A DNA stretch of 64,000 bases, taken from the NCBI GenBank assembly GCA_016218825.1, contig JACRCV010000063.1, positions 1,070-65,069 on the forward strand, written 5' to 3'. The notes under the pieces are model-generated. The model was not told the DNA's origin and did no database searches. It saw only the letters and a program-made list of their open reading frames with translations. This stretch comes from Deltaproteobacteria bacterium (lineage in GTDB: Bacteria; Myxococcota; XYA12-FULL-58-9). The translations under genes and the position numbers were made by a program. Positions within the stretch are counted from its first letter, which is position 1, and every line of letters begins with the position of its first letter. Shown piece by piece: positions 44,795-64,000 of this stretch.

Positions 44795-44796
44795 CG

Positions 44797-45453: not shown

Positions 45454-46400
45454 AGGATCCTCAGCGCCAGCGCCAGGAAGGCGCACACCAGGCCCAGGCC
45501 CAAGAACTGCGGCACCCGGAAGAAGCGCAGCTTGGCGTACGACGACTCGACGACGCCGAGGAAGGTGGCGAGCACCAGCACCTTGGCGGTGAAGGCCGCG
45601 AGCGCCAGCGCCACCGCTCCCGGCTCGGCGCTCGGCATCAGCCCAAAGGGAAAGAACAGCGCCGCGACCAGGGACAAGATCACGAGCTGCTTGGTGTGGG
45701 TCGCGAGCACGATGCACGCCAGGCCGGGGCCGGAGTGCTCGAGCAGCATGCCCTCGTGGAGCATCGTCAGCTCGAGATGGGTGTCGGGGTTGTCCACCGG
45801 GATCCGTCCGGTCTCGGCGAGGGTCAGCACCAGCATCGCGAACAGCGCCAGGAGGTCCGGCGCCTGCCACGCCAGCGCCGCGAGCGTCTGGCGCCGCAGG
45901 GCGAGATCTCCGAGGTCGGTGCTCCCGCCCGCGACCGCCACCGAGAACACCGCCAACATCAGCCCCGGCTCGACCAACAGACCGATGGTCATCTCGCGCG
46001 ACGCCCCCATGCCGCCGAAGGCGCCGCCGGCGTCGAGCGCGCCGATCGCACACAGGAAGCGCGCCAGCGCCAAGAGCGCCAACAGCAGGATGGCGTCGCC
46101 GAGCGGCAGCAGCGCGGCGCCCGCGGGCGCCCACAGCACCGGCAGCATGAAAGTGGTGGCCAGGGTCGCCGCCAACACCAGGACCGGCACGACGCGGAAG
46201 AAGGGGCTCGCGGAGTCGCTCTCGACCGTGCCCTTCTTCAACAGCTTGGCCAGATCGCGGTACGGCTGCCAGACGCTCGCGCCCTGCCGGCACTGCAGGC
46301 GCGCCTTGAGCTTCTGGATGAAGCCGGTGACGAACGGCGCGCACACGGCGAGCAGGGCTGCCTGGAGCACGACGCGTCCGAGGTGGGTGGCGATCTCCAT
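45450..46400 (-). CDS. NuoH-like membrane subunit (HycD/HyfC-like)
   Basis: Polytopic, with ...GRIPVDNPDTHLELTMLHEGMLLEHSG... typical of NuoH/HycD; ATGA overlap with the downstream gene. Confidence 0.75.
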   Translation of the reverse strand: MEIATHLGRVVLQAALLAVCAPFVTGFIQKLKARLQCRQGASVWQPYRDLAKLLKKGTVESDSASPFFRVVPVLVLAATLATTFMLPVLWAPAGAALLPLGDAILLLALLALARFLCAIGALDAGGAFGGMGASREMTIGLLVEPGLMLAVFSVAVAGGSTDLGDLALRRQTLAALAWQAPDLLALFAMLVLTLAETGRIPVDNPDTHLELTMLHEGMLLEHSGPGLACIVLATHTKQLVILSLVAALFFPFGLMPSAEPGAVALALAAFTAKVLVLATFLGVVESSYAKLRFFRVPQFLGLGLVCAFLALALRIL

Positions 46401-46403
46401 GAC

Positions 46404-48404: not shown

Positions 48405-48473
48405 GGCGGCGCGGATGGTACTCCTTCCGGCCGGTGAGTCCAACCACGACGGCGCGAAGGTCGACCGCCGCGC

Positions 48474-50351
48474 CTACAGCGCTTCGAGCGTGGCGCGCTC
48501 GGCGTCGGTGTAGCCGAGCCCCTTCCAGTCGAGCACCGACCGCGGCCCGTGACAGCGCTCGCAGCTCAGGGCGCCGTCCTTGCGGATCGCGTGACTGATC
48601 TCCATCGACGCGTCGGCGGGGATGTAGCGCGGCTCGACTCTCTCGAGGGCCCGGACGTCGTCGTACGCCGCGGTGTCCCAGCGCGGCATCTCCATGTACG
48701 AGACGAACTCGTCCATCAGATAGACCTTGAACATCAGGCCGTAGAGCATCGCCATCATCGGCTTCTGAACCTCGGCCTGCGCCGCGGCGTCGGGCTTGCC
48801 GGCCGCGAGATAGACCGGCAGGTTGTAGGGCACGAACATGCCGCCGAACGGGCCCATGTTCTGCAAGTCGATGTGCTGCTTGCCGTTGTACACCTTGAAC
48901 GGATACAGCTTCGACGGCTTCAGGCCCGCGATCGGGCGCATCTTGGCGTCGTACCACGCGGCGTAGTCGAAGGTCTGATACTCCGGCCAGACGTGCTGCG
49001 GGCGGTAGAAGCGGTACAGCCTCTGGCCGTTGGGGTTGTCGCCTATCGGGTTGCCGAGGAAGGTCGCGTCGCCGGTCCACCAGGCATAGGTGATCCCCTT
49101 GCCGGGCTCGGTGTCCTTGACGGTGTCGGTGTAGATGTGGAGGCCGGCGGCCTCTTCGTACTCGGTCTGCGAGAAGTCGCGCATCGTCGTCGAATCGGGG
49201 TGCAACGACGGGATGTGGCAGGTCTGGCAGGCGAGACGCCGGCCGTGGTCGTTGAGCGCCTGCGCCTGCGCCATGCTCTCGTGCGGCGCCGCGCCGTGAC
49301 AGCTCTCGCACGCCACCTCGACCCCCGGCAGGTCGTTCGCCATCAGGGTGGTGGTGTGCGTGCCCCTGGGGATGTAGTGCCCCTCGGTCAGGTGACACTC
49401 GGTGCAATTCATTCCCTGCGCCGCGTGCACGTCCCAGGAGGGCGAGTAGGGCGTGCCGCGCTTGCTGCCGGGGTGCAGCACCCGCGGTCGGCTGTGGCCG
49501 ACGTTCTGCAGGCTCTGCATGTACGAGCCGGCCGTGGGGTCGACGTAGACGTCGCCGCCCATGTTGTGCTGGTGGCAGCGCAGGCAGGTCTGGGCGGTGG
49601 TGCGGGTGACCGAGAGCACCGCGGCCAGCGACCGGTCCTGGTCCCAGCGCTTGCGGCCGTCGGCGTCGGTCACCACCTGCTTCTTGTTCATGTCGTAGGC
49701 CTGCGCGTGGCAAATGAGGCAGTCGATGGCGTTGGCCTCGGCTTCGAGGGTCCGATAGCCGGGCATCAATTCGCCCAGCGGCGCCTGGTACTGGCCGCCG
49801 ACGTGACACTGGCCACAACCCTCCGACAGGGTCCGGCCGTCTTTGAGCTCCACGGTCTCGGCCCAGGCGGTGAACGCGAACGAGCCGGGTTTCGGGCACG
49901 GGCGATCGATCTTGCCCATCGGAAAATCGTCGGCGAGCACGCCGTTGAAGCCCCACACGTTCGGGTGCGCGGTCGAGAAGAACCGGTAGTGGACGCTGGT
50001 GGTCACGTTCTCCATCAGGTCGACCTGCTTCTCCTTGCCGCTCTTCGCGTCTTTGACCTTGATCTCTCGGTGGCAACCGACGCAGGTCTCGGGCCCGGAA
50101 AACGACGTCAGCCCCGCCTTGGCGAACAGGTCGACGTGCTTGAGCTTCACGCCCGGGAGCTCGGCCTCGAGCGCCGCGGCCACGGCCGCGAGCTTGGCGG
50201 CGTCGAAGGTGAGGACCGGGAGCGCGACCGCCGCCGGGCGGCTTTGCGCCGGCAGCATCATGTTGATGATGTGCGGCCAGAATCGATACAGGCCGAGCGC
50301 CAGGGCGACGATGAGGGCAGCGACGCCGGCGACGCGGTTGGGCTTGGTCAT
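48474..50351 (-). CDS. membrane-anchored octaheme c-type cytochrome
   Basis: Eight CxxCH motifs (CVGCH, CGQCH, CLICH, CLRCH, CTECH, CESCH, CQTCH, CERCH); N-terminal signal-anchor VAGVAALIVALALGLY. The stop is 30 bp (or 69 bp with the alternative start) upstream of the first hydrogenase membrane subunit gene. Confidence 0.8.
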   Translation of the reverse strand: MTKPNRVAGVAALIVALALGLYRFWPHIINMMLPAQSRPAAVALPVLTFDAAKLAAVAAALEAELPGVKLKHVDLFAKAGLTSFSGPETCVGCHREIKVKDAKSGKEKQVDLMENVTTSVHYRFFSTAHPNVWGFNGVLADDFPMGKIDRPCPKPGSFAFTAWAETVELKDGRTLSEGCGQCHVGGQYQAPLGELMPGYRTLEAEANAIDCLICHAQAYDMNKKQVVTDADGRKRWDQDRSLAAVLSVTRTTAQTCLRCHQHNMGGDVYVDPTAGSYMQSLQNVGHSRPRVLHPGSKRGTPYSPSWDVHAAQGMNCTECHLTEGHYIPRGTHTTTLMANDLPGVEVACESCHGAAPHESMAQAQALNDHGRRLACQTCHIPSLHPDSTTMRDFSQTEYEEAAGLHIYTDTVKDTEPGKGITYAWWTGDATFLGNPIGDNPNGQRLYRFYRPQHVWPEYQTFDYAAWYDAKMRPIAGLKPSKLYPFKVYNGKQHIDLQNMGPFGGMFVPYNLPVYLAAGKPDAAAQAEVQKPMMAMLYGLMFKVYLMDEFVSYMEMPRWDTAAYDDVRALERVEPRYIPADASMEISHAIRKDGALSCERCHGPRSVLDWKGLGYTDAERATLEAL

Positions 50352-50566
50352 CGCAGACTCCGGGAGGGCGCGGGGTGTTGAGCCGGCCCGGATCAGGGGT
50401 GGGGAGATCCCACCGCAGAGCATAGAGCCACCAGCCTTCGAGAACGGTGCAGGCGCTCGCGGCGCGCCGCTGGCGGTCCCTTCAGGCGGTGCATACCCTA
50501 GCGGCGTGAGAACCGGGCTCGCGGGCGTTTGCGCCTGCTACGCCGGTGATTTCATAGGGAGGCGCT

Positions 50567-50950
50567 ATGGCGACCTTGGCCGAACAATCCTGTCAACCTT
50601 GCCGCGGCGGCGTGCCGCCGTTGTCTGCAGATCTGGCGCGGGCGCTCACGACCGAGCTCGCCGGCTGGACGATCATCGACGGTCACTTGACGAAGCCCTA
50701 TGACTTCATCGACTTCGCCGAGTCGCTCGCCTTCGTCGATCGGGTCGGCGAGCTCGCCGAGTACGAAGGCCACCACCCCGACATCTACCTGACCTGGGGG
50801 CGGGTGCGCATCGAGCTCTGGACCCACAAGGTGAACGGGCTGACGACCAACGACTTCATCATGGCCGCGAAGATCGACCGGATGTTGCAGCGGAGCATCC
50901 GCGTTCCGCCGTCGACCGTGGATCAGCCCGGGACGACCGCGCACCCGTAG
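50567..50950 (+). CDS. pterin-4a-carbinolamine dehydratase (PCD/DCoH)
   Basis: [EDKH]x3GHHPx5,6[YW]x9Hx8D signature: EYEGHHPDIYLTWGRVRIELWTH...D; GGGAGG RBS. Confidence 0.8.
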   Translation: MATLAEQSCQPCRGGVPPLSADLARALTTELAGWTIIDGHLTKPYDFIDFAESLAFVDRVGELAEYEGHHPDIYLTWGRVRIELWTHKVNGLTTNDFIMAAKIDRMLQRSIRVPPSTVDQPGTTAHP

Positions 50951-53900
50951 ACGACGACCGGCACCACCCCGCCCTCCTTGAGGGTCTCGCACGGGGCGCC
51001 GAAGACGTCGATGCGGTTGCCACCCGGGTCGTAGATCCAGTTCACCCAGCGGTCGACGCGTTGCAGCGTCGGCGGCCCCGAGGCGTTCGGGGTCTCGAGG
51101 TAGAGGTAGATCTTGTCGATGTCGGCCCTGACCGGCAGCGGGCCCAGCGGCAACGAGCAGCCGCGCACCTGCTTGACGATCGCGGCGAGCGCCGCCTTCA
51201 GCTCGTCGAGCTGCTGGGTGTCGTAGTAGCAAGTCGAGGCGCTGGCGGCGCAGTTGGCGTCCGTGAGGCCGGGGCAGAGCCCGGCGCTGGTGCGGCCGTG
51301 GACCGCGTGGCAGTTCAAGTTGCCGCTGGTCGCGGTGAAGTTGAAGGCGACGACGTAGGTCTTGATGCGCGGCGTGCCGGCGTACAGCTGGTCGAGGGCG
51401 TGGTTCACCTTGCAGGCGTACTGGGTCGCGATACAGTCACGGCAGGCCTGTGCCTGGCAGTTGCCGACGCCGCCGTCGCACATCGGGCAGGCCGCGTTGG
51501 TGCAGGTCCCCGAGTTGCAGTCGTTGCTGCTACAGCTGGTGTCGCACGGCGCGCAGGTGGCGCTGACGCAGTCGCCGGGCAGCGCGCAGGTCTTGCCGCC
51601 GCCGCACGCCGGACAGCTGCCGCCGCAGTCGACGTCGGTCTCCGAGCCGTTTAGCAGGCCGTCCTTGCACTGCGGTGTGGCGCAGACGCCGGCCGGCGCG
51701 CCGTTGCAGAAGGCGCTGGTGCAGTCGCCGTCCGCGGTGCAGGTCTTGCCGTCGACGCACGGGCCGCAGGCGGAGCCGCCGCAGTCGGCGTCGGTCTCGA
51801 GGCCGTCCTTGCCGCCGTTGTTGCAGGTCCCGATCCGGCAGATGCCCGCCTGGCACGCGCTCGAGGTGCAGTCGGCGTCGTCGGCGCAACCCTTGGTGTC
51901 GGCGCAGTTCGCGGCGCAGCTGCTGCCGCCGCAGTCGACGTCGGTCTCGGAGCCGTTCTTGATGCCGTCGCCGCAGGCGGGGACCAGGCAGCGCAACAAT
52001 TGGCAGTTGCCGCTGGCGCAGTCGGCGCCGGTGGTGCAGCTCGCGCCGTCGGCGCATGGCCCGCAGGCACCGCCGCAGTCGACGTCGGTCTCCGAGCCGT
52101 TCTGGCCGGCGTCGCCGCAGGTCGCGGCGCGACACATCCCGGTGCGACAGATGTTGTGCTCGCAGTCGTTCGCCGTCAGGCACAGGCCGCCGTCGATGCA
52201 CGGCGCGCAGGTGCCGCCGCAGTCGACGTCGCTCTCGTCGCCGTTCTTCGTCGTGTCGGTGCAGGGCGGCCGGCAGACCTTCTGCGTCGCCGGGTCGACG
52301 TCGCCGATCGCCTCGCCGTCGGTCACCAGGAGGACGGCGTTCTGGGTCGCGGGGTCGTCGAGGCCGGCGGCGAACAGGTCGGCGCCGATGGCGCGCAGGG
52401 TCTGCCCGGTCGGGGTGCCGCCGCCGGGCATCGTCGGCACGAGCGCGGCGCCGATGGCCGCTTGCTGGTTGGCCGCGACCCTGACGTCGATGGCGCCGGC
52501 GTTGTTGTTCGAGCGATCACTGCACGAGTACCAGTTGCAGTCGGTGACGCAGGTCTCGGTGCCGGTCGGGTGCGGGAACAGCGCCAGGCCGAAGTTGGCG
52601 TTGCCGGCCTGATCGGCGATGACGTCGGTGACCGCCTGCACCGCCTGCTCCCAGCGGCTCGTGGTCTCGCCGTGGCCGCCGGTGTTGCAGTCCGGGGTCT
52701 GGCTGGTGCAGATCGCGGTCTGGCTGCCGGGGCACTCCAAGGTGAAGGGGGCGCTGGCGCCGGTGCAGGTCGGGGAGCCGCCGCCGCTGCAGCCGACCGT
52801 GCCGTCCGAGCACCGCGGCGTTCCGGTGGTGCTGCACGAGGGCACGCCGGCGATGCAATAGGGCGCGCGGCCGGAGTTGGCGTCGGCGCAGGTGATGGTG
52901 ATCGTCGGATCGGAGCACGAGTAGCCGCAGCAACCGGCGAGGGATTCGCCGGCGCCGCAGATCTGCATGCTCGCCGACCGATCCAGCGCCACCAGGATGT
53001 TGGGCGGCGCCAGGTCGCCGGCCGACAGCCGGGCCATCGTGCACTCCGGCACCGGCTCGCATTGCCACTGGACGTTGCAGGTCTCGCCGACCGCGCAGTC
53101 GGCGGCGGTCGCGCAGCCGCCGGCCGGCAGACAGGCGCCGGTAGCGCTGCACTTCCCGGTCGCGCCGCACCCGGTCGTGGCGCACGCTTCGCTCGTGACG
53201 CAGTGATGGCTGTCGTCGCAGGTGAACGTCCCGGTCGGGCAGTCGGCCGCCGTCACGCAGGTGAGCGGCGTGATGCAGGAGCAGGTCCCGGGCGTGCTGC
53301 AGCCGGCGTCATAGAAACAGCGTTGACCCAACGGGCAGCAATCGGTCGAGGATGCGGAGTCGCAGCACGAGTACTCGGTGGCGTTACAGCCGGTGTACTT
53401 GAGGTCGTTGGTGACGCAGAGCGTGCCCGAGACCACGCAGTCCGGCGCGTTGCAGCTGTGTCCCGGCGCGCAGTCCGCGTCGAGGTTGCAGGTGCCGGCG
53501 GTGATGCACTCGGAGGTCGCGCTGCAGATCTCACCCACCGGATCCGGGCAGTCAGCCCGCACCAGACAGGTGTTCTCGTCGATGCAGATGCCGGCCGTCG
53601 AGCACACCTTCGGCGGCGTCGTGCCCGTCGGACAATCAGGCGTGGTGTCGCAGCCCGGCGGCGCCAAGCAGTTGCCGGCGGTGCTGCAGAACTTGCCCGG
53701 TTTGCAGTCGGTCGGCATCGTGCACGTCAGCCTCTCGGAGCAGGTGCCGGCCGGGCAGGCGTAGCCTTGGCCGTACTCGACCGCCTGTTCGACGCTGCAG
53801 TCCTCGTCGACCGCGCATTGCCCGGTCGCGCGGCAGGTCAGGGCGGTGTCGCAATACTGGTTCGGATCGCAGTCGGTGTCGGCGCCGCACTTGCCGATGA

Positions 53901-54645
53901 TCACGCAGATCCACGCGTCGCTGCAGTACTGGCCGTCGGGACAGGCGCCGGTCGGGTGGTCCTGCGAGCAGGGAAGCGGCACGCAGCCGGTGGCCTCGCA
54001 GACCTGATCCTCCGGGCAGGCGCCCGGGATCCCGGGGCGGCACTGGATGGTCTTGCAGGTCCCGCTGGTCGCGTCGCACGCCTGACCAGATGGGCATTGG
54101 CCGGCCGGGTTCGCGCGGCTGCACGGGGTATCGATCGGAATGCAGCGGCCCTCGAAGCAGGTCAATCCCGGGTCACACCAGCCGCCGGGGTGCTCGGGAG
54201 AGCATGGGTAGCGGTTCGGCACGCAATGGCCGCCGATGCAGACCTCGCCGTGGTCGCACCACCCGTCGGGGCGCGCCGGCGAGCATGCCGTGGACGGGTC
54301 CGTGGTGCACTTACCGTCGGCGTCGCAGCCCTGGTCGGGCGGGCATACGCACCAGTCGGGGTTCGGCTCTTTGCACCCGGTCGCCGCGCAGCAGGCGGCA
54401 GCATCGACGCAGAAGCACACGCCCCCGGCGCACAGGCGGCCGCGGGCGCAGTCGCCATCCGGTTGGTCTTTCGAGCACGGTCCCGGCGAGGGGACGCACT
54501 CGCCGAGGGTGGTGTCGCAGACCCAGTCGATGCCGCACTCGGAGGAGGAGGTGCAGGGCACGGCGTGCCGGGGCTCTTGAATGACCAGCAGCCCCGAGCA
54601 CCCAGGGGTGACGAGCACGAGCAACGAAGCCAAGCGCAGGTTCAT
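50923..54645 (-). CDS. very large Cys-rich lipoprotein with vWA domain and DVDCGGxCxxC repeats
   Basis: Signal plus lipobox VTPGCSG. The N-terminal half is ~12 PxGxCxxGxxC modules. vWA MIDAS sequence ILVALDRSASM ... LLVTDGEA follows. Six DVDCGG[ST]CxxC repeats and a ~180-aa C-terminal domain complete the protein. Confidence 0.7.
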   Translation of the reverse strand: MNLRLASLLVLVTPGCSGLLVIQEPRHAVPCTSSSECGIDWVCDTTLGECVPSPGPCSKDQPDGDCARGRLCAGGVCFCVDAAACCAATGCKEPNPDWCVCPPDQGCDADGKCTTDPSTACSPARPDGWCDHGEVCIGGHCVPNRYPCSPEHPGGWCDPGLTCFEGRCIPIDTPCSRANPAGQCPSGQACDATSGTCKTIQCRPGIPGACPEDQVCEATGCVPLPCSQDHPTGACPDGQYCSDAWICVIIGKCGADTDCDPNQYCDTALTCRATGQCAVDEDCSVEQAVEYGQGYACPAGTCSERLTCTMPTDCKPGKFCSTAGNCLAPPGCDTTPDCPTGTTPPKVCSTAGICIDENTCLVRADCPDPVGEICSATSECITAGTCNLDADCAPGHSCNAPDCVVSGTLCVTNDLKYTGCNATEYSCCDSASSTDCCPLGQRCFYDAGCSTPGTCSCITPLTCVTAADCPTGTFTCDDSHHCVTSEACATTGCGATGKCSATGACLPAGGCATAADCAVGETCNVQWQCEPVPECTMARLSAGDLAPPNILVALDRSASMQICGAGESLAGCCGYSCSDPTITITCADANSGRAPYCIAGVPSCSTTGTPRCSDGTVGCSGGGSPTCTGASAPFTLECPGSQTAICTSQTPDCNTGGHGETTSRWEQAVQAVTDVIADQAGNANFGLALFPHPTGTETCVTDCNWYSCSDRSNNNAGAIDVRVAANQQAAIGAALVPTMPGGGTPTGQTLRAIGADLFAAGLDDPATQNAVLLVTDGEAIGDVDPATQKVCRPPCTDTTKNGDESDVDCGGTCAPCIDGGLCLTANDCEHNICRTGMCRAATCGDAGQNGSETDVDCGGACGPCADGASCTTGADCASGNCQLLRCLVPACGDGIKNGSETDVDCGGSSCAANCADTKGCADDADCTSSACQAGICRIGTCNNGGKDGLETDADCGGSACGPCVDGKTCTADGDCTSAFCNGAPAGVCATPQCKDGLLNGSETDVDCGGSCPACGGGKTCALPGDCVSATCAPCDTSCSSNDCNSGTCTNAACPMCDGGVGNCQAQACRDCIATQYACKVNHALDQLYAGTPRIKTYVVAFNFTATSGNLNCHAVHGRTSAGLCPGLTDANCAASASTCYYDTQQLDELKAALAAIVKQVRGCSLPLGPLPVRADIDKIYLYLETPNASGPPTLQRVDRWVNWIYDPGGNRIDVFGAPCETLKEGGVVPVVVYGCAVVPG

Positions 54646-54714
54646 CGGTTTCTCCGCGGCTCGCGCGCGGTCCTACGCGGGACCGCCGCGGCGAGGCACG
54701 CAATCACTGAGCAC

Positions 54715-57700
54715 TCAGAATAGCACGCACTCGCCGCCGACGCATTTCAACGGCGAGCAACAATCAGGGTGGTCGACACATTCGGTGCACTGGTTGTTGA
54801 TGCAGGCCTGGTTGTTGCAATCACGGCAGCCGTTGCACTGCTTGCACAACGAGGTGTTGAAGGCGCAGCCCGCGGTGCAGCTGAGGGTGCCGCCGCCCGG
54901 GTAGCCGAGGTCGGTGCACTGCTTGTTGTTGAGGTTCGGCGCCGCCGGGGGGGTGCCGAGGCCGCCTGGATCGCAGACCTCGCCGGGGTCGATGACGCCG
55001 TCGCCGCAGCTCGTGGCGCTGCCGCACGCCGAGGTGTCGAAGGTGCAGTCGGCGTTGCAGCTCAAGCCGGTGCCGGTCAGGCCGAGGGTCACGCAGGTCT
55101 GGCCGTTGAGGTTCGTCAGGTCGCACTCCTCGGGCGGCGTCCGCCCGGCGTCGATGCGGCCGTCGCCGCAGCGCCGGCAGCCGCCGGGGTTGAAGCTGCA
55201 GTCCCCGAAGCAGGCGAGGGTCCCGCCCCAGTACGGGCTGCCGCTCGTGTAGGTGCTGCAGGTCTTGCCGCCCAAGTCCGGGGGCGGGACGTTGTCGGTG
55301 GTGTCGCCCGGGTCACAGCTCTCGGTGGCGTCGAGGGTGCCGTCGCCGCAACGATAGCAGGCGGTGAGGTCGAGGGCGCAGGCCGAGGTGCAGGCGATGT
55401 CACCGCCGTCGTAGCCGGCGGTGCTGCAGCTCTGGCCGCCGAACGCCGGTGCCGGGTTGCCGTCGGTGATGTCGCCCGGGTCGCAGATCTCGGGGGCCTG
55501 GATCAGCCCGTCGCCGCACGAGCGACAGCCGGAGTAGTTCAGCGTGCAGCTCGTGGTGCAGACCACCGTCCCCTGATCCGGGCAGGCGGCGCCGTTCAGC
55601 CGGTTGCCGTCACACTCCTCGCCTGCCTCGAGGATGTTGTTGCCGCAGCGGGTGCAGCCGGAGGTGTCGGGGGTGCAGTCGGCGTCGCACACCGTGATGG
55701 TGCCGCCGGTGAAGCCGAGATCCTGGCAGGTGATGGTGATCGGCGCCGGCGGCGGCGTGCCGCTCGGGTCGCCGGGATCACAGAGCTCGAGGGTGTCGAG
55801 CAGCCCGTCGCCGCAAGACGGCGGCAGCGTGCAGTCGTTGTCGAAGGTGCAGTCGCTGTTGCAGCTCAACCCTGGGCCGGGAACGAAGCCCAAGGTCTCG
55901 CAGGTCGCGCCGCCGAGGTCGGCGGCGTCGCACTGCTCGCCCGGCTCCCGGGCGTCGTTACCGCAGCGGGCGCAGAGGCTCAGATCGAAGGCGCAGGTGG
56001 CGCCGCACGCGAGCGTGCCGCCGTCGAAGGGCGGCGTCGTCTGGCCCGGGAGGGTGGGCGAGTTGCAGGTCTGGCCGGCGAGGTTGTTGCCGTCGCACGC
56101 TTCGCCGCTCTCCAACAGGTAGTTGCCGCAGCGGGTGCAGCCGGAGGTGTCGTAGCTGCAGTTCGGTTGGCAGTGCACGGCGCCGGCGGTGAAGCCGAGG
56201 CTGGCGCAGTCGACGCCGGCCGGGAGCAGATCGTCCGCGGGGTCGGTGGTCGCCGGATCGCAGAGCTCGGCCGGGTCGAGCACGGCGTCACCGCAGCGGT
56301 AGCAGGCGAGCAGCCGCTGGCAGAGACCGTTGCAGCTCACCGTGCCGCCGTCGTAGCCCAGCGTCTGGCAGGTGACCCCGTTCAGGGCGCTGCCGTCACA
56401 CTGCTCGGCGGCCTCGATGACGCCGTTGCCGCAGCTGTAACAGCGCGTGGTGTCGTAGGTGCAGCTGGCGGCGAAGCAGTACAGGTCGCCGCCGGTGTAG
56501 CCGAGCGTCGTGCAGCCGTCGGCGCCGCCCACCTGCCCCGCGCCCTCGCAGTCCTCGCCGCCGTTGACCAGGCCGTCGCCGCACTCGTAGCAGCCGCTGT
56601 CGTCGACCTTGCAGTTGTTGGCCGGCGTCGGGTCGTCCATCACGCACACCAGGCTGCCGCCGGCAAACCCCCGGCTGACGCAGGTCTCGGCGCCAAAGAC
56701 CGTTCCGTCACATTGCTCGCCGGCGTCGAGCTGGCCGTTGCCGCACGGCGGCGGGCAGTAGTCGCCGGCTTTGACGACGCCGGTGTCGAAGTGAATGCGC
56801 GCCGGTTGGGTGATCGAGAAGTTCTTGGCAAACAGGCCGCCGTAGATGTCGAGATCTTGGGTGATGCTAGCTAGCGCATTCGGGGCGTAGATGTTGGACG
56901 CGATGTAGGACGGCTGGACTAGATCGACCACGGTGCCGGCGACGTACAGGCGAGTGCGCGAGGTGAAGGCCGGCGAGCCGATGCGCATTCCGGCGTTTAC
57001 GTAGAAGCTGCCGAGGACGAAGATGTCGAGCTCGGCCGCCGCATCGAGCGTGATCTGCACAGAGCCAGCTTGGATGTTGCCGCCGATGAACAGCGCCGCG
57101 CGGCCGTGGACCACGATCGTCGCCGGTTGCGCGATCTGAGTGAGGTAGTAGTACCCACAGTCCAGGTCCAGACGGCCGCCGGTGATCTGGAAGACGTCGG
57201 GGTCGAGCTGGATGGACGCGTTGTCGTTGTTCCCCGCCGGGCAGGTAGCGTAGGTCGCGCCGGTACAGCGATGCGCACTTATGATGGCCGCGACGTCGAT
57301 CAACTGGCCGGCTGAACAGTCGCACGCGTCTGGGACCGTAAGTCCGGGCGTGGGCACCTTCGCGCCGGTGAACCCGACCGAGCCCCAGTTGGCGCAGTAG
57401 ATCGTGCCCTCCACGACCCCGCTCCCGGTGCCGGAGCCCACCACAAAGAGGTTCTTGTTGCACTCGAGGCCGCCGCCGCCGCCAATGGCAAGGTTGCCGC
57501 CGATGCGCACGTCACCATCGACGAAGAGCTTCTTGGCGTCACTGGTGACGTTGCCCCACGGAGTGATGCCGTCGACGCCGGTCTTGTTCGCCGTCCACAC
57601 TGTTCCAAACACGTTGCCATCGATACCGGAGGTGCCAAATGTTGCGTAGCCGTTGGCCCCGAGGCCGGCTCCGGTACCGCCCTTGCAGGTGCTGCCTGGA

Positions 57701-60700
57701 CATTGCAGGTCGTTCATGCACGCGGCGGCGTTGTTGACACACCTGGGAGCCGCGTACGGAGCGATGGAGCTGTTGAAGCCGTCGGTGAGGATACCTTGCT
57801 GCATCTTGGAAACGTCATGGCACGCACAGAGAGCCCAGCGGAAGGTGACCGCCGCCAGGTCGCCGGCGCACTCGAGCGCGCCGCCCAGGCCCGTGGAGAT
57901 CGCCGGACCGCCGCCGACGCACTTGGCCGGGGCCGGCCCTACCGGCTTGATGGCGTTGCTGCAGGTGCCGTCGATGCACGCGAAGCCCGACGAGCACAGG
58001 GTGCCGCAGTTGGCGCCGCCGGTGGCGCCGCAGTGGGCGCTGTCGGTCTTGGGGTCGACGCACAGGTGGGCGCTGGTGCAGGCGACGAGCGGCGCCGCGC
58101 ACTGGGTGCTCGTCACACACTTGCCGCCGTAGCAGACGTCGGTGCCGCCACAGGCGGTGCCGCAGGCGCCGCAGTTCAACGGGTCGACCGTCAGGTTCTT
58201 GCAGGCGCCGCTGCAGTCGGTGAGGAAGGTCGGGCAGGCGCAGGCGCCGTCGACGCAGGTCTGGCCGCCCGGGCAGGCGCCGCAGTTCAGGCACAAGTCG
58301 GTGTCGAAGGACAAGCAGTCCTCGGCGCACGACAGCTCGCCGCCGTCGAAGTAGTTGGACGGCGCCACCGCGATCAGATCGGTGCAGCGCTTGCCGTCGA
58401 GGTTCTGGCCGTCGCAGAGCTCGCCGCGCGCGGTCTCGACCGTGCCGTTGCCGCAGGTGTGGCAGCCCGACTCGTCGAAGCCCAGGCAGTTGGCGCTGCA
58501 GGCGCCGAGCACGCCGCCGGTGTAGCCCTTGCCGATCGACAGACAGGTGGCGCCGGCGGTGTCGAGGCCGTCGCAGGCTTCGGCGCCCTCTCTGACGCCG
58601 TTGCCGCAGCCGGCGCACGCCGACTTGTCGAAGGCGCTGCAGTCGAGCGTGCAGGCGAGCCCCGGCCCAAAGAGCGGCGGGAACGAGGCGCAGCTCTGGC
58701 CCTTGAGGTCGGGAGTGGGCGTGCCGGTCACGGGGTTGCCGGGGTCACAGGCCTCGGTCGGCTGCGCGCTGCCGTCGCCGCAGCCGCCGGTGCAGGCCGT
58801 CGTGAGGTAGCCGCTGCATGACGGATTGCACTGCAGGGTGCCGCCGGTGAAGCCGAACTGGCTGCAGCCGGCGCCCCCCAGGGCGGTGCCGTCGCAGCGC
58901 TCGCCGTTGTCGATGCGGTCGTTGCCGCAGCCGACGCACGCCGAGGTGTCAAAGGCGGTGCAGTCGCTGTCGCACTGCAGCACACCGTTCAACAGCGGCG
59001 GGAAGTCGGTGCAGTCGGGCGGTGGCGACAGGCCTTGGGTCGGGTCGAGGTCGAGCCCGTCGCAGAATTCGCCGTAGATCCCGGTGGCGTTCTCGGCCCA
59101 GACGCCGTCGCCGCAGGCGGGCCGCGTGCAGCGCGTCGTGCAGTTGCCGAGGTCGTCGTTGGCGGCGCCGAGATCACACACCTCGGTCCAAGGCGCCGCC
59201 GCCAGATCGCTCACGAACCCGTCGCCGCACCCCGGGCGCTTGCAGTTGTCGCGGCAGCTGTCGTTGTCGACGCCGTTGGCGTCGTCGCACTGCTCGCCAT
59301 TGGCCCACTGCACCACGCCATCGGCACAGCGCGGCCCGAGGCCGCTGCAGCCGACGTTACAGTGACCGTAAGTGCCGTTCGTGGTGCTGCCTTCGTCGCA
59401 GACCTCGCTGCCGCCCGGCAGCCCGTCACCACAATAGAGGGCAAAGCCGGAGCACAGGGCGTTGCAGTGCGCTGCCGGCGCGTAGGCGTCGCTGTTGGCC
59501 GCCCCGTCGTCACAGGCTTCGCTGCCGCCCGGCAGCCCGTCACCGCAGTAGAGGGCAAAGCCGGAGCACGAGGCGTTGCAGTGCCGGGTCGCGGCGTAGG
59601 CGTCGCTGTTGGCGGCGCCGTCGTCGCAGGCTTCGCTGCCGCCCGGCAGCCCGTCACCGCAGTAGAGGGCAAAGCCGGAGCACGAGATATTGCAGTGCCG
59701 AGTCGCGGCGTAGGCGTCGCTGTTGGCGGCGCCGTCGTCACAGGCTTCGCTGCCGCCCGGCAGCCCGTCACCGCAGTAGAGGGCAAAGCCGGTGCACGAG
59801 GCGTTGCAGTGTTGGGTCGCGGCGTAGGCGTCGCTGTTGGCGGCGCCTTCGTCACAGGTCTCGCTGCCCCCCGGGAGCCCGTCGCCGCAGTAGAGCGCGT
59901 AGCCCGAGCACGCGGTGTTGCAGTGTCTGCTCGCGGCGTAGGCGTCGCTGTTGGCCGCCCCGTCGTCACAGGTCTCGCTGCCCCCCGGGAGGCCATCGCC
60001 GCAGTAGAGCGCGTAGCCCGAGCACGAGGTGTTGCAGTGTCTGCTCGCGGCGTAGGTGTCGCTGTTGGCCGCCCCGTCGTCACAGGCTTCGCTGCCGCCC
60101 GGCAGCCCGTCACCGCAGTAGAGGGCAAGGCCGGAGCACGAGGCGTTGCAGTGCTGGGTCGCGGCGTAGGCGTCGCTGTTCGCGGCCCCTTCGTCACAGG
60201 CTTCGCTGCCGCCCGGGAGCCCGTCACCGCAGTAGAGGGCAAAGCCGGTGCACGAGGCGTTGCAGTGTCTGGTCGCCGAGTAGGTGTCGCTGTTCGCGGC
60301 CCCTTCGTCACAGGTCTCGTGATAGGTGGTCGCGGCGCTCGCCACCAGGCCGTCGCCGCAGCTGGGGCGGGTGCAGTCGTCGCGGCAGTCGTCGTCGTCG
60401 ACGAGGTTGCCGTCGTCGCACTGCTCGGTGCCGTTCGGCGTCCCGTCGCCGCAGCGGTAGCAGGCGCTGGTGTCGAAGGTGCAGCCGCCGCTGCAGCCGA
60501 GGTTGCCGCCCGCGAAGCCGAGGGTTACGCAGGTCTGGCTCTTCTTGTCGTCGGCGTCGCACTGCTCCGGGCCGGTGGCGACGCCGTCGCCGCAGCGCGC
60601 GCCGGTCACGCAGTCGGTGGTGACGAAGGCGTCGCAGGTCGGCGCGCAGTCGAGCACGCCGCCGCCTTCGAAGCCGAGGCCGCGGCAGGTGTTGGCCTTC

Positions 60701-61770
60701 AGATCGTCGCCGTCGCACACCTCGCCGCCGGTCGCGGCGCCGTCACCACAGCGGCTGCAGAGGGCGGTGTCGAAGGCGCAGCCCTCAGTGCAGCCGAGGA
60801 CGCCGGTGGTAAAGCCCAGGCCGGCGCAGGTCTGATTCGCCAGATCACCGCCGTCACACGCCTCCGGCCCGGCGCGGACGTTGTCGCCGCAGGTCGTCGC
60901 AGTCTGGCAGCCCAGCGTGTCGTACGTGCAGTCGCCGGCGCAGGCGATCAGGCCGCCGTCGTAGCCGAGCGTCTCGCAGGTCTCGTTGCCGAGGGCGGCG
61001 CCGTCGCAGGCCTCGCCGCCGTCGACGACGGTGTTGCCGCAATACGCCGAGACTACACAGAGGCCGGTGTCGTAGCCCGTGCAATCCGGCTTGCAGCGCA
61101 AGCTGCCGCTGTCGTAGCCGAGCGCCACGCAGGTCTTCGAGGCGAGATCGCCGCCGTCGCAGATCTCCGGCCCGGCGCGCACCCCGTCGCCGCAGGTCGC
61201 CGCGGTGGTGCAGGCGGTGGTGACGAAGTCGGTGCAGTCGCCGTTGCAGGCCAGCGCGCCGCCGTCGTAGCCGAGCGTCTCGCAGGTCTCGGTGTTGAGG
61301 TCGGTGCCGTCACACCTCTCCGGCCCCTCGGTCAGGGCGTCGCCGCAGTGCGCCGCGGTCAGACAACCGGTCGTGCTCCACCCGTCGCAGGTGGCGTTGC
61401 AGGCGAGGCTGCCGCCGCCCTCGAAGCCGAGGCTGATGCAGCTGTGGCCGCCGGTCGCCGCCTGGTCGCACAGCTCCGGACCCTCGACGACGCCGTTGCC
61501 GCAGCTCTGCCACTGTTGGCAATGGCCGGCGGTGCAGATGCCGCTTTCGCAGTCGGTCGCGGTGGTGCACTCGTCTCCGAGCTGACACGCGCCACAGCTG
61601 CCGCCGCAGTCGACGCCGGTCTCGGCGCCGTCTTTGACGCGGTTCGCGCAGTCGCCCGCGGTCGGGTCGCCGGCGGGTTGTTCGAAGATCACCTTGCCGC
61701 TGCAGGCACCGAGGACGAAGAGCGCGCCGAGCGCACCGACCGAACACAGGGGGTTGGCTGTCAGAGTCAT
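54715..61770 (-). CDS. giant (2351 aa) extracellular Cys-rich repeat lipoprotein with central beta-helix-like module
   Basis: ATG at 61768-61770 with lipoprotein signal VLGACSG. More than 25 TIGR02232-type repeats (CGDGxxxxxExCDG...C). Nine to ten near-identical 37-aa repeats (GDGLPGGSEACDDGAANSDAYAATRHCNASCSGFALYC). A ~380-aa Gly/Val/Ile-rich central region follows (LFVDGDVRIGGNLAIGGGG...). Cys-dense C-terminus. Confidence 0.7.
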   Translation of the reverse strand: MTLTANPLCSVGALGALFVLGACSGKVIFEQPAGDPTAGDCANRVKDGAETGVDCGGSCGACQLGDECTTATDCESGICTAGHCQQWQSCGNGVVEGPELCDQAATGGHSCISLGFEGGGSLACNATCDGWSTTGCLTAAHCGDALTEGPERCDGTDLNTETCETLGYDGGALACNGDCTDFVTTACTTAATCGDGVRAGPEICDGGDLASKTCVALGYDSGSLRCKPDCTGYDTGLCVVSAYCGNTVVDGGEACDGAALGNETCETLGYDGGLIACAGDCTYDTLGCQTATTCGDNVRAGPEACDGGDLANQTCAGLGFTTGVLGCTEGCAFDTALCSRCGDGAATGGEVCDGDDLKANTCRGLGFEGGGVLDCAPTCDAFVTTDCVTGARCGDGVATGPEQCDADDKKSQTCVTLGFAGGNLGCSGGCTFDTSACYRCGDGTPNGTEQCDDGNLVDDDDCRDDCTRPSCGDGLVASAATTYHETCDEGAANSDTYSATRHCNASCTGFALYCGDGLPGGSEACDEGAANSDAYAATQHCNASCSGLALYCGDGLPGGSEACDDGAANSDTYAASRHCNTSCSGYALYCGDGLPGGSETCDDGAANSDAYAASRHCNTACSGYALYCGDGLPGGSETCDEGAANSDAYAATQHCNASCTGFALYCGDGLPGGSEACDDGAANSDAYAATRHCNISCSGFALYCGDGLPGGSEACDDGAANSDAYAATRHCNASCSGFALYCGDGLPGGSEACDDGAANSDAYAPAAHCNALCSGFALYCGDGLPGGSEVCDEGSTTNGTYGHCNVGCSGLGPRCADGVVQWANGEQCDDANGVDNDSCRDNCKRPGCGDGFVSDLAAAPWTEVCDLGAANDDLGNCTTRCTRPACGDGVWAENATGIYGEFCDGLDLDPTQGLSPPPDCTDFPPLLNGVLQCDSDCTAFDTSACVGCGNDRIDNGERCDGTALGGAGCSQFGFTGGTLQCNPSCSGYLTTACTGGCGDGSAQPTEACDPGNPVTGTPTPDLKGQSCASFPPLFGPGLACTLDCSAFDKSACAGCGNGVREGAEACDGLDTAGATCLSIGKGYTGGVLGACSANCLGFDESGCHTCGNGTVETARGELCDGQNLDGKRCTDLIAVAPSNYFDGGELSCAEDCLSFDTDLCLNCGACPGGQTCVDGACACPTFLTDCSGACKNLTVDPLNCGACGTACGGTDVCYGGKCVTSTQCAAPLVACTSAHLCVDPKTDSAHCGATGGANCGTLCSSGFACIDGTCSNAIKPVGPAPAKCVGGGPAISTGLGGALECAGDLAAVTFRWALCACHDVSKMQQGILTDGFNSSIAPYAAPRCVNNAAACMNDLQCPGSTCKGGTGAGLGANGYATFGTSGIDGNVFGTVWTANKTGVDGITPWGNVTSDAKKLFVDGDVRIGGNLAIGGGGGLECNKNLFVVGSGTGSGVVEGTIYCANWGSVGFTGAKVPTPGLTVPDACDCSAGQLIDVAAIISAHRCTGATYATCPAGNNDNASIQLDPDVFQITGGRLDLDCGYYYLTQIAQPATIVVHGRAALFIGGNIQAGSVQITLDAAAELDIFVLGSFYVNAGMRIGSPAFTSRTRLYVAGTVVDLVQPSYIASNIYAPNALASITQDLDIYGGLFAKNFSITQPARIHFDTGVVKAGDYCPPPCGNGQLDAGEQCDGTVFGAETCVSRGFAGGSLVCVMDDPTPANNCKVDDSGCYECGDGLVNGGEDCEGAGQVGGADGCTTLGYTGGDLYCFAASCTYDTTRCYSCGNGVIEAAEQCDGSALNGVTCQTLGYDGGTVSCNGLCQRLLACYRCGDAVLDPAELCDPATTDPADDLLPAGVDCASLGFTAGAVHCQPNCSYDTSGCTRCGNYLLESGEACDGNNLAGQTCNSPTLPGQTTPPFDGGTLACGATCAFDLSLCARCGNDAREPGEQCDAADLGGATCETLGFVPGPGLSCNSDCTFDNDCTLPPSCGDGLLDTLELCDPGDPSGTPPPAPITITCQDLGFTGGTITVCDADCTPDTSGCTRCGNNILEAGEECDGNRLNGAACPDQGTVVCTTSCTLNYSGCRSCGDGLIQAPEICDPGDITDGNPAPAFGGQSCSTAGYDGGDIACTSACALDLTACYRCGDGTLDATESCDPGDTTDNVPPPDLGGKTCSTYTSGSPYWGGTLACFGDCSFNPGGCRRCGDGRIDAGRTPPEECDLTNLNGQTCVTLGLTGTGLSCNADCTFDTSACGSATSCGDGVIDPGEVCDPGGLGTPPAAPNLNNKQCTDLGYPGGGTLSCTAGCAFNTSLCKQCNGCRDCNNQACINNQCTECVDHPDCCSPLKCVGGECVLF
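59400..60310. repeat. 111-bp in-frame tandem repeat array (~8 copies, >85% identity) inside the giant CDS
   Basis: The unit gctgccgcccggcagcccgtcaccgcagtagagggcaaagccggagcacgaggcgttgcagtg... recurs with period 111 at 59407, 59518, 59629, 59740, 59851, 59962, 60073 and 60184. Confidence 0.8.
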
Positions 61771-62111
61771 TTGACGAACCTCTCGAGGACCGTGGGTTGC
61801 CACGAAGCGTATCACGCGGGCACTCCCTTGGCCGACAATTCTGCCACCTTGCTCCCGTCGAGGCCCCAACCCGGCTAGTCCGCGGGCGACCGGGCGCGGA
61901 TACGTCCGCCGCGCCGCCCCGACTCCAAAGGCGCGCCAGGTCGTTTGCAGGACGATTCGTCCACGCCGCAGGCCGCGAGAGGCTGCGCCGTCCACTGCTC
62001 GCCCGCGGCCCGACCAGGTCTCTGGTATGATCCAGGGACTTGGACACGCAGGGCCGCGACCGGCACCGGCACGATGTCTGCAACGTCGGACCGGCAACGA
62101 GAGGTCTCCCG

Positions 62112-64000
62112 ATGACGAGACGATGGAGGCGACAGGTCTCAGGCACGGCGGCGCGACGGCGCTCTGCGGTCCTCCTCATAGTGACCGTCGGGGCAGTCGG
62201 CTGCGGCCACGACCCGCTGCACGGCCCCTGCGACGGCTTCACCGACGACGATCACGACCGCCACTTCGCCCCCGCGTCTTGCACCAGCGCGAGCACCCAA
62301 TGCCTCTGCGACGACTGCGTCGACAACGACGCCACGGTCTACGCGGGCGCGACGGAGCTCTGCGACGGCAAAGACAACAATTGCGACGCGCTAACGGACG
62401 AGGGCTTCCGGGTCGGCAGGCTCTGCGGTGTCGCCGGCGGTGGTTGTGGACGCAACGTCTGTGGCGCTGACGGCGCCGCGGTCTGCAGCCCCACGAATGA
62501 CCTGCCGTCGCCCGAGGTCTGCGACGATCAGGACAACGATTGTGACGTCGAGATCGATGAGGGCTTTGGTGTCGGCGCGCTGTGTTCGGCGGGCGAAGGC
62601 GCGTGCCTGAACGACGGCGCGATGCGCTGCACCGCGGACGGGACCGGCGTCGAGTGCAGCGCGGTCGCCACGGATCCCGCGGTCCTCTGCGCCGGGAAAT
62701 GCGGCGGTCCGGATAACTGTGGCGGCGTGTGTCTCGGTAGCTGCGCCGAGGGCTGCTGCGATCCGTCAGCCTTTACCTGCGTACCCTTCGCGGCGCAATC
62801 GAACGCGCTCTGCGGCGACACTGGCGCGATGTGTGACACCTGCGTGGCGCCCGCCGTCTGCGAGCCGAGCCTGCACGCCTGCTTCTGCGAGCCCCAATGC
62901 GCCGGCAGGTGCAGCGGCGACGACGACCAGTGCGGCAGCACCTGCACCGCGAGTGACTGCGCCGGCTGCTGCGCCGGCTTGACCTGCCGGCTTGGGGCGG
63001 TGTGCGATTCGGAGATCGCGAGGTTCGCAAGCGACTTCGTAAGCCTCTCATGGGAGGCCGACCTCGACGGGCTCGCGGAGATCCCGGCCGAGGACATCTA
63101 CGGCGCGGCGCTCTACATCGCCGGCCGGCGGATCGCGCTCGTGGACCACTTGCTGTCGCGCAAGGGCGAGCAGGGCTTCGTCGACCCGCAGTCCGGCGTG
63201 ACTCGGACCTGGAGCGGCTCGGGATGCGCCGCGGACGTGCCCTTGGACTCGACGCTGGCGGACTTTCACCGCTGCACGCTCGGGCTCTGGGTCGGCCCGC
63301 CGGCCCACTATCTGATGCGCAGTGACCGGAGCCGCGCGTCGATCGACGGTGACGCGTTGGTGAACGCGGTCGCCTGGGAGGAGCGGGTCGAGGGCTACTA
63401 CTGCCCGGGCAATCCGAGCTACAGCTGCGCCAGCAGCGGCGCGTTCGGCCTCGGGCTCACCTGGGGCGATCCGCGGCGGGTGGCGTCGGCCAACCCGTTT
63501 TGGATCTGGGCGAGCGACAGCTACTTCGAGCTGAACTCGTACTACACCATCTGTGGCAACAACGACGCTCGCGCGGCGGCCCTTGGCGGCTGGGGCGAGT
63601 CGTCGCTCGTGGCGTTTTCGTGCGCCCCCGATCCGACGCCGGGACCGAACCAGGGCAAGCCGAGCCCGTGGGCCGTGGCGATCGCCGACACCGTGAACGG
63701 CTTCGACATCGCCCGCGGCGGTGACGCGACCCACCCCATTTACCTGAGCTTCGGCGACGGCCCGACGATGAAGGTGCTCATCGACGAGGCCGGGGAGGGC
63801 TTTCCGACCTCGCAGACCCTGCCGGCGGGCACCAAGCTCGTGACGATGCCGGCGACGAGCGCCACCCACCACGCGCGGGCTGCCGGCAACCCGTTGCTGG
63901 CGCCGATGGTGATCCACAAGTACGCCGCCGCGGGTAACTACACGATCATCACCGCGGGCCGCGTCGCCGCGACCGGTCTCCCCGAGCTCGGCCTGCTCAC
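62112..64000 (+). CDS. lipoprotein with MopE-like CxDGxDNDCD putative metal-binding repeats (3' end outside window)
   Basis: My own translation of the frame from ATG 62112 is open to the window end (not in the track because it has no stop). Signal plus lipobox TVGAVGCG. Repeats CDGKDNNCDALTDEGF and CDDQDNDCDVEIDEGF. A Cys-dense region is followed by a Cys-poor C-terminal domain. Confidence 0.65.
   Translation, partial: MTRRWRRQVSGTAARRRSAVLLIVTVGAVGCGHDPLHGPCDGFTDDDHDRHFAPASCTSASTQCLCDDCVDNDATVYAGATELCDGKDNNCDALTDEGFRVGRLCGVAGGGCGRNVCGADGAAVCSPTNDLPSPEVCDDQDNDCDVEIDEGFGVGALCSAGEGACLNDGAMRCTADGTGVECSAVATDPAVLCAGKCGGPDNCGGVCLGSCAEGCCDPSAFTCVPFAAQSNALCGDTGAMCDTCVAPAVCEPSLHACFCEPQCAGRCSGDDDQCGSTCTASDCAGCCAGLTCRLGAVCDSEIARFASDFVSLSWEADLDGLAEIPAEDIYGAALYIAGRRIALVDHLLSRKGEQGFVDPQSGVTRTWSGSGCAADVPLDSTLADFHRCTLGLWVGPPAHYLMRSDRSRASIDGDALVNAVAWEERVEGYYCPGNPSYSCASSGAFGLGLTWGDPRRVASANPFWIWASDSYFELNSYYTICGNNDARAAALGGWGESSLVAFSCAPDPTPGPNQGKPSPWAVAIADTVNGFDIARGGDATHPIYLSFGDGPTMKVLIDEAGEGFPTSQTLPAGTKLVTMPATSATHHARAAGNPLLAPMVIHKYAAAGNYTIITAGRVAATGLPELGLL

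Follow-up and report, generated by a model that had tools for sequence, protein, structure and literature searches.

In a window of 64,000 nucleotides from a 'Deltaproteobacteria bacterium' of the Myxococcota (positions 1,070 to 65,069 of contig JACRCV010000063.1), two neighboring genes on the minus strand encode cysteine-rich proteins, a 1240-amino acid (aa) protein with a von Willebrand factor type A (vWA) domain (50923-54645) and a giant protein of 2351 aa (54715-61770). Our interpretation, to which we assign a probability of about 0.5, is that these two lipoproteins form a pair that functions jointly at the cell surface as an adhesin of the CglB/CglD kind. A first-pass annotation, made from the DNA sequence alone, had listed an adhesin among several candidate roles, and this role is the best supported because the vWA module is homologous to the gliding adhesin CglB. 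The vWA protein and the giant match GenBank entries MBI5509462.1 and MBI5509463.1 exactly; both entries come from the 'Deltaproteobacteria bacterium' metagenome-assembled genome (MAG) and are annotated as 'hypothetical protein', and each protein is the sole member of its own cluster at 90% identity.

The window has a G+C content of about 70%, and the segment 50923-64000 is filled by three long open reading frames (ORFs). The third one, coding for a probable lipoprotein with MopE motifs, is oriented divergently from the giant gene (62112 to beyond 63998, plus strand) and is cut by the end of the window, leaving 629 aa visible. Cysteine accounts for 12.7% of the vWA protein (157 residues), 10.5% of the giant (248 residues), and 7.5% of the visible third protein (47 residues), compared to 0-2.6% in 18 other ORFs of the window. 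If the cysteines of signal peptide and lipobox are excluded, 156 remain in the mature vWA protein and 246 in the mature giant, both even numbers. The N-termini of all three proteins, as read from their translations, consist of a hydrophobic stretch followed by a lipobox-like cysteine. The first-pass annotation had described three secreted or lipidated cysteine-rich proteins, presumably stabilized by disulfides, and it also had considered that the genes might be frameshifted pseudogenes or encode known enzymatic domains. The description is borne out: the proteins have signal peptides of lipoprotein type and are predicted to be rich in disulfides, the ORFs are intact, with no frameshifts or internal stops in the ORF check, and Pfam and NCBIfam profile searches find no enzymatic domain in any of the three proteins. 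The G+C content at third codon positions (GC3) is 0.88-0.90 in the giant gene (0.90) and the third gene, a range that covers these two because the vWA ORF fell outside the filter on G+C by codon position. The open frame of the giant extends over 54715-62097(-), and its likely start is the methionine at 61770, which follows a 109-codon upstream extension. In neither of the flanking intergenic regions was a sigma-70-type promoter or an intrinsic terminator detected.

The vWA protein consists of four parts, all on the minus strand. An N-terminal Cys-rich stalk (aa 19-535, i.e., 517 aa with 83 Cys; 53041..54591) has no Pfam or NCBIfam match. [quoted passage not shown] Right after the strand with the MIDAS aspartate, five eight-cysteine DVDCGG modules (aa 806-1010) and a Cys-rich tail are inserted (aa 793-1074 in total; 51424..52269), and the last part of the vWA domain together with a C-terminal β-sandwich completes the protein (aa 1075-1240; 50926..51423). 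Only six near-full-length homologs were found among 5.8 billion cluster representatives. In these six, the MIDAS residues D555-R-S557-A-S559, T744-P-T746, and D776 (motifs DRSxSM, TPT, and LVTDGE) are invariant, nearly every cysteine is invariant as well, and the lipobox-like motif GC/SG is kept.

The vWA domain is not recognized in the native protein, which gives no vWA-profile match at threshold in Pfam or NCBIfam, with the full-length sequence and aa 540-800 yielding either no match or only 14.8 bits. When the inserts are deleted in a spliced construct keeping aa 540-563, 660-700, 715-792, and 1075-1165, VWA_2 (PF13519) reaches 27.5 bits (cut-off 27) and VWA (PF00092) 24.1 bits (cut-off 23.8), scores that lie just at the gathering thresholds. 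The profile check that the first-pass annotation had proposed for this domain fails on the sequence as it stands and comes out just at the thresholds once the inserts are removed. The same spliced sequence matches the CglB equivalog profile NF033757, 'adventurous gliding motility lipoprotein CglB' (E = 1.7e-12, 47.1 bits), to which the native protein gives no match. An 878-aa vWA paralog from a related locus (L007), which lacks the DCGG array and most of the inserts, aligns with its aa 527-864 to positions 31-387 of the 402 positions of the CglB profile (E = 4.4e-16, 58.9 bits). Because this alignment covers almost the entire profile, the module formed by vWA domain and β-sandwich is, as judged from sequence comparison, homologous to essentially the whole of CglB. 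An iterative search with the vWA module using jackhmmer drifted into Cys-rich repeats, and the DVDCGG units have no Pfam match at E ≤ 10.

In the established vWA topology, the β1-α1 and β4-α5 loops carry MIDAS residues. One of the two inserts, of about 100 aa, begins right after DRSASM, and the other, of about 280 aa and composed of the five DCGG modules and the Cys-rich tail, begins right after LVTDGE. Since these positions correspond to the two MIDAS loops, both inserts would be located on the ligand-binding face of the domain.

The giant starts with a signal peptide and lipobox (MTLTANPLCSVGALGALFVLGAC/SGK, read from the translation; 61702..61770), and all of its features are encoded on the minus strand. 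A single DCGG-type eight-cysteine module (aa 40-88; 61507..61653), 44-52% identical to the five copies of the vWA protein, precedes an N-terminal repeat array (aa 90-1160; 58291..61503) of TIGR02232 type, made up of 12 units with six Cys (about 50 aa each) and 12 with four Cys (31-43 aa). Among the latter, eight units of 38 aa each are encoded by a tandem DNA array detected with Tandem Repeats Finder (114 bp x 8.1 copies, 89% matching; 59393..60314). Next come Stig1-like Cys-rich modules with CxxCG motifs (aa 1161-1272; 57955..58290), for which NF041328 scores 47.9 bits, under its cut-off of 100, and for which an AlphaFold2 (AF2) model has a predicted local distance difference test (pLDDT) value mostly above 88. 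The β-solenoid core that defines the family (aa 1273-1672; 56755..57954) is assigned from a DUF7305 match and the AF2 model. Between this core and a C-terminal Cys knot (C.SC.DC.NQAC..G.C..C....DCCSPL.C..G.C; 54718..54855), which is conserved family-wide in a comparison of the C-termini of 27 members, a second array of 12 six-Cys repeats of about 50 aa is situated (aa 1676-2305; 54856..56745). Of the 36 TIGR02232-type units with CG[DN]G-type heads, 24 thus lie before the Stig1-like region and 12 between core and knot; 24 are of the six-Cys kind with the consensus CG[DN]G.....E.CDG..L.G..C..LG[FY].GG.L.C...C.[FY]D...C, and 12 are of the four-Cys kind.

The repeat families named in the first-pass annotation, i.e., TIGR02232, the MopE motif, and a vWA domain with DVDCGG repeats, proved to be the right ones, and TIGR02232 (myxo_disulf_rpt) scores 117 bits in the giant (cut-off 20.8). 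DUF4215 (PF13948), a further profile it had suggested, reaches only 19.8 bits in the Pfam search, under the gathering score of 27. It overlooked the DUF7305 (PF23981) β-solenoid core that defines the family of the giant, where the Pfam match covers aa 1518-1663 (56782-57219) with 52.6 bits against a cut-off of 27. The repeats, which make up 75% of the giant, are strongly acidic (13-15% Asp plus Glu versus 3% Lys plus Arg). The giant and the vWA protein carry calculated net charges of about -208 and about -80, respectively. The histidine content of the giant is 0.9%.

At E ≤ 1e-3, a search of 1.84 billion cluster representatives gives the core of the giant (aa 1273-1672) relatives in 757 clusters, formed at 50% identity. 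Members typically have a length of 400-650 aa and consist of a lipobox, Stig1-like CxxCG modules, the core of about 400 aa, and a C-terminal knot of about 40 aa with the consensus C.SC.DC.NQAC..G.CG.C....DCCAPL.C..G.C, which in small members directly follows the core. A lipobox-like motif is present near the N-terminus of most members. Among ten relatives scanned, DUF7305 matches in all (nine above gathering score) and Pfam Stig1 in five (three above gathering score). The giant keeps every part of this architecture in unchanged order and adds one DCGG module as well as repeat arrays in two places. Such arrays are found only in the closest relatives of its core, i.e., P0020, P0021, P0022, P0025, P0027, and the giants of loci L001, L007, and L012, and core identity across the subclade of the giant is 37-48%. 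A scan with a seven-sequence alignment of the core family, using one genome per species, yielded 68 genome loci, all from MAGs of Myxococcota, Bradymonadales, or 'Bdellovibrionales'.

The AF2 model of aa 1161-1675 of the giant, built from a 57-sequence alignment, is confident, with a pLDDT of 86.4 and a predicted template modeling score of 0.89, and consists nearly entirely of β-strands. A Foldseek search of the core model against the PDB gave nothing below E = 1e-3 (best E = 1.4e-3, TM ≤ 0.28), and the best matches, none of them significant, were DUF3494 ice-binding β-helices, the ComZ pilin, and tapirin adhesins. On account of the all-β model and the lack of a significant fold match, the core is predicted to be a β-solenoid with neither a close solved relative nor a detectable enzymatic family. 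When the core, the spliced vWA sequence, and the C-terminal portion of the third protein were compared with PDB sequences, no meaningful match emerged, and literature searches on DUF7305 and TIGR02232 found no papers. A subclade of the core family with many Stig1-like repeats (1000-1300 aa) has a conserved gene of about 330 aa directly upstream (L044 6636-7718, L047 111-1169, L050 6357-7718, L064 7167-8270, and L066 7193-8263); its product carries a signal peptide, resembles an outer-membrane β-barrel, and gives no Pfam match.

The giant and vWA genes lie on the same strand with a gap of 69 bp, and the same order of giant followed by vWA gene recurs in four other loci. In L001, a giant of 3181 aa precedes a vWA homolog of 1327 aa, in L007, a giant of 1386 aa precedes one of about 1227 aa, in L012, a giant of 1394 aa precedes one of about 1212 aa, and in L074, six-Cys repeats and a knot form the end of the upstream ORF, which stops 18 bp before the vWA gene. 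Giant and vWA gene thus occur together in five of the eight loci that hold a vWA homolog. The two partners also have in common the DCGG module, which is not catalogued and is present in one copy in the giant, in five copies in the vWA protein, and in about 30 copies in the giant of L001. On the other side of the vWA gene, a pterin-4a-carbinolamine dehydratase gene (50567-50950, plus strand; Pfam 100 bits) converges on it with a 28-bp overlap of the 3' ends. Because this convergent gene lies between the pair and the cytochrome/hydrogenase-like genes downstream, co-transcription with the latter was rejected and giant and vWA gene are a two-gene unit of their own.

Among the roughly 60 small loci of the core family, only L054 and perhaps L002 have a vWA gene downstream, and about 55 have no vWA neighbor. 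On this count, the idea that small DUF7305 lipoproteins are generally partnered by vWA proteins was rejected; the giant-vWA partnership is specific to the subclade of the giant. The two small pairs (L054 9503-13647, L002 3336-6397) consist of a DUF7305 lipoprotein of about 500-580 aa followed by a vWA lipoprotein of about 420-470 aa. Both vWA lipoproteins have a similar C-terminal β-sandwich. The one from L054 has an intact MIDAS and matches a profile of the insert-free vWA-plus-sandwich columns of the vWA family with E = 2.6e-8, whereas the MIDAS of L002 is degenerate. The signal peptides of the two L002 proteins are nearly identical. In L007, the 878-aa paralog mentioned above (545-3178, minus strand) is encoded 4.6 kb upstream of the giant as a second vWA gene; with an N-terminal Cys-rich stalk and no DCGG array, it is a natural 'spliced' form of the vWA protein of the window.

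In our interpretation, the giant and vWA genes would be co-transcribed and their products would be located as a pair of lipoproteins in the outer membrane, exposed at the cell surface and probably in physical contact with each other. Each would present a binding head on rigid, acidic repeat modules stapled by disulfides, the head of the giant being the β-solenoid of about 400 aa containing DUF7305 and that of the vWA protein its MIDAS-containing vWA domain. The Cys-rich insertions of the latter might crown, tune, or mask the ligand site. A number of observations weigh against this interpretation. Surface exposure of lipoproteins is not predictable from sequence, and the source is the MAG of an uncultured organism. 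Both CglB scores (47 and 59 bits) are far under the ortholog cut-off of 200 of NF033757, for which reason the vWA protein is not CglB itself. The AF2 model of aa 530-1240 of the vWA protein is poor (seven sequences, pLDDT 50.5), and a fold search with this low-confidence model gave nothing below E = 0.06; the order of secondary structure elements in it (β1, insert, α, β, β, α, α, β4, insert, α, β, α, β) nevertheless fits a vWA domain followed by a β-sandwich. The solenoid core likewise lacks a significant fold match, and its invariant polar residues, listed below, could mark a catalytic instead of a binding site. Finally, three vWA homologs (on the P0004 contig, in L075, and in L076) have no giant immediately upstream, and the scarcity of vWA neighbors among the small core-family loci points in the same direction.

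A bolder version of this adhesin hypothesis, which we consider possible but rather doubtful, is that the pair constitutes a hitherto undescribed adhesin of uncultured Myxococcota, integrin-like and built from two subunits, in which a CglB-homologous MIDAS head crowned by Cys-knot modules and a β-solenoid giant are carried on long disulfide-stapled stalks, with the DCGG module shuffled between the partner genes. In such a system, the Cys-knot modules in the MIDAS loops might act like the specificity-determining loop of β-integrins or as a built-in mask, and the eight-cysteine DCGG module would be a new, mobile building block distributed to both partners by shuffling. Cys-rich vWA lipoprotein adhesins as such are already known in Myxococcus. 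No description is found in Pfam, NCBIfam, or the literature searched for the DCGG module, for a CglB-type head interrupted by Cys-knot modules, or for the dedicated pairing with an expanded DUF7305 β-solenoid lipoprotein.

Although the first-pass annotation spoke of three very large proteins, this size holds for the vWA protein and the giant and not for the third protein. A full-length homolog of the latter has 597 aa and is 35% identical over 96% of the visible part, from which the complete protein is estimated to be about 660 aa long. Besides two MopE motifs and another Cys-rich stretch, it contains a C-terminal domain of about 350 aa that is unclassified and has no match in Pfam, NCBIfam, or the PDB. 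The PF11617 (Cu-binding_MopE) match at aa 68-97 scores 33.5 bits, above the gathering score of 27 and in agreement with the first-pass annotation; being a profile match only, it is silent on copper. A 425-aa MopE-motif paralog (P0168) is encoded outside the window on the same 67,214-bp contig. Over a stretch of about 130 aa close to its N-terminus, it is nearly identical to the product of the third gene, the remainder being divergent, which suggests a recent duplication or gene conversion.

Whether the third gene belongs to the system was the premise of the island of three genes in the first-pass annotation, in which a joint matrix or adhesin scaffold would include the MopE-motif lipoprotein. 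Its divergent orientation from the giant gene across a shared intergenic region of 341 bp, its Cys content, and its probable lipoprotein nature would agree with such an island, but no homolog of the third protein is encoded in any of the 76 loci with relatives of the giant or the vWA protein, only giant and vWA gene recur together, and in L001 the gene upstream of the giant codes for a molybdopterin oxidoreductase. MopE-motif proteins moreover form a very broad family in which the motif is combined with many other domains. The third gene is an unrelated neighbor outside the conserved pair, and a functional island of all three genes is improbable. Somewhat less improbable, yet still unlikely in our view, is that the pair itself forms a structural, Ca2+-binding scaffold of matrix or envelope with no specific ligand, the acidic repeats building an extracellular lattice and the vWA domain mediating self-assembly. 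In many systems it is vWA domains that bring about multiprotein assembly, TIGR02232 bears the description 'cysteine-rich acidic repeat', and the strongly acidic repeats that make up three quarters of the giant are in line with this idea. However, a tethered adhesin would account better than a lattice for the lipid anchors and for each head domain being present only once, and the closest characterized relative, CglB, is a substratum adhesin (PMC9946355).

The β-solenoid core could also be an enzyme, for example one degrading glycans or matrix, with the repeats as spacers and the vWA protein as substrate-binding partner. Many β-helix proteins are polysaccharide lyases or hydrolases, and among 57 members of the core family an NDN motif, an arginine, and the His and Asp of IHYD (HxD) are invariant or nearly invariant. 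Nonetheless, no enzymatic Pfam or NCBIfam family matches the core and its top fold matches, which comprise ice-binding-type β-helices, ComZ, tapirins, and other adhesins, include no lyase or hydrolase, and we give an enzymatic core little credence. It seems less probable still that the pair are polymorphic receptors for cell-cell recognition comparable to TraA, in which a Cys-rich stalk presents a variable head. The outline of surface anchor, Cys-rich stalk, and head is alike (PMC3325183), the number of repeats varies between orthologs, with about 30 DCGG modules in the L001 giant and one here, and the tandem array of eight 114-bp units could change in length. But the TIGR04201 repeats of TraA (PMC3325183) as well as PA14 and MYXO-CTERM give no match in the three proteins at E ≤ 0.01 in Pfam and NCBIfam, and the heads are conserved rather than hypervariable, as the core identities across the subclade indicate; cell-cell recognition, a candidate role in the first-pass annotation, loses its footing here. 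Metal sequestration, another of its candidates, fares worst: that the Cys-rich proteins bind metals or serve the neighboring cytochrome/hydrogenase-like complex in extracellular electron transfer is extremely unlikely. Pfam names PF11617 a 'putative metal-binding motif', and a multihaem cytochrome gene is located about 500 bp downstream on the same strand. Against this, only two MopE motifs are present, CxxCH is absent, histidine is scarce, and the cysteines are even in number and invariant as expected for disulfides, so that apparently all of them are paired; in addition, the convergent gene lies between the pair and the cytochrome operon, and the other loci with the pair lack cytochrome genes.

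Several other genes of the window may be mentioned. The cytochrome cluster (40851-50423, minus strand) encodes a 649-aa multihaem c-type cytochrome with an MtrC/MtrF-like domain and a match to the octahaem tetrathionate-reductase family (94 bits), followed by NuoL/M-like, NuoH-like, fused NuoC/D with a segment of the NiFe-hydrogenase large subunit, and NuoB-like genes, and appears to specify a cytochrome-coupled membrane complex of the group-4 hydrogenase- or Mrp-like kind. A second set of genes for Proton_antipo_M subunits of NuoL/M/N or Mrp type (10344-16059, minus strand) is found apart from this cluster at 41-48 kb. Genes related to maturation and sorting of lipoproteins, which code for apolipoprotein N-acyltransferase (Lnt), a LolC/E-like permease of the FtsX type, and a LolA-like protein, are located 15-25 kb from the giant lipoproteins (30235-37779, plus strand). 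Another large probable lipoprotein of about 910 aa (21393-24221, plus strand) has about seven tandem repeats of about 100 aa and a C-terminal DUF1554; with 1.8% Cys, it is outside the Cys-rich set. A DUF7790 protein is encoded at 5753-7816 (plus strand), and a DUF7790 gene is also found directly upstream of, and divergent from, the gene for the vWA homolog P0004 on an unrelated JGI contig, which may be coincidence. Similarly, an NtrC-type FHA-sigma54 activator (27776-29140, minus strand) has the same architecture as one encoded directly upstream of a small DUF7305 gene on the unrelated JGI contig of P0019; this co-occurrence may be without meaning, such regulators being common in Myxococcota.

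With CglB and CglD, myxobacteria grip surfaces by means of integrin-like vWA lipoproteins, and the locus described here suggests that a CglB-type head may have been rebuilt on a far larger scale, with a long Cys-rich stalk, modules on the ligand face, and a dedicated β-solenoid partner. If this holds true, more forms of integrin-like adhesins would be known from bacteria, and there would be a first functional handle on the family of Stig1-DUF7305-knot lipoproteins with its 757 clusters and on the DCGG module. A practical warning also follows, i.e., that standard profile searches overlook a vWA domain split by large insertions.

Among characterized systems, the closest is CglB, the gliding adhesin of M. 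xanthus, a surface-exposed outer-membrane lipoprotein of 416 aa with a MIDAS-containing vWA domain, a small β-jellyroll, and 17 Cys, which requires D56 of its MIDAS for gliding (PMC9946355). CglB and the vWA protein share an N-terminal lipobox, a DxSxS...T...D MIDAS, a small β-sandwich or jellyroll, and a Cys-rich composition. In contrast, the vWA protein is three times longer (1240 versus 416 aa), has 157 instead of 17 Cys, and possesses in addition an N-terminal Cys-rich stalk of 517 aa as well as vWA loops into which Cys-rich modules totaling about 400 aa are inserted. The vWA protein is paired with the β-solenoid giant and is not known to dock on GltABCHK, and no glt or agl genes were found among the ORFs scanned in the window. 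CglD, a β-integrin-like lipoprotein of 1130 aa (bioRxiv 10.1101/2023.10.19.562135), resembles the vWA protein, itself predicted to lie at the surface, in being a large lipoprotein in which a Cys-rich stalk accompanies a MIDAS-containing vWA domain, and both CglB and CglD are surface-exposed, MIDAS-dependent adhesins stabilized by disulfides (PMC9946355; bioRxiv 10.1101/2023.10.19.562135). The stalk of CglD is EGF-like, with Ca2+-binding repeats and stabilizing disulfides, and its repeats are of TSP3/EGF-like type, whereas the vWA protein has DCGG and unclassified modules; its Cys content is 4.1% versus 12.7%, and its profile (NF033765) has no significant match to the vWA protein of the window, only a weak one to the L002 neighbor (E = 0.0074).

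TraA, the myxobacteria-specific receptor for outer-membrane exchange, is like the proposed adhesin pair in presenting a surface head on a long Cys-rich tandem-repeat stalk (PMC3325183). It differs from the giant in its repeats (TIGR04201 versus TIGR02232), its PA14 head, and its MYXO-CTERM in place of an N-terminal lipid anchor. Compared to the small Stig1-DUF7305-knot lipoproteins of 400-650 aa, the giant with 2351 aa has 24 plus 12 extra repeats. Tapirins and the ComZ pilin are among the best, although non-significant, fold matches of its core (TM ≤ 0.28), and the giant has no pilin N-terminus. Finally, the overall layout of giant and vWA protein is that of fibrillar adhesins, in which an anchor, a repeated stalk, and a head follow one another, with the difference that the stalks consist of Cys-knot modules here and of Ig-like domains in the fibrillar adhesins.

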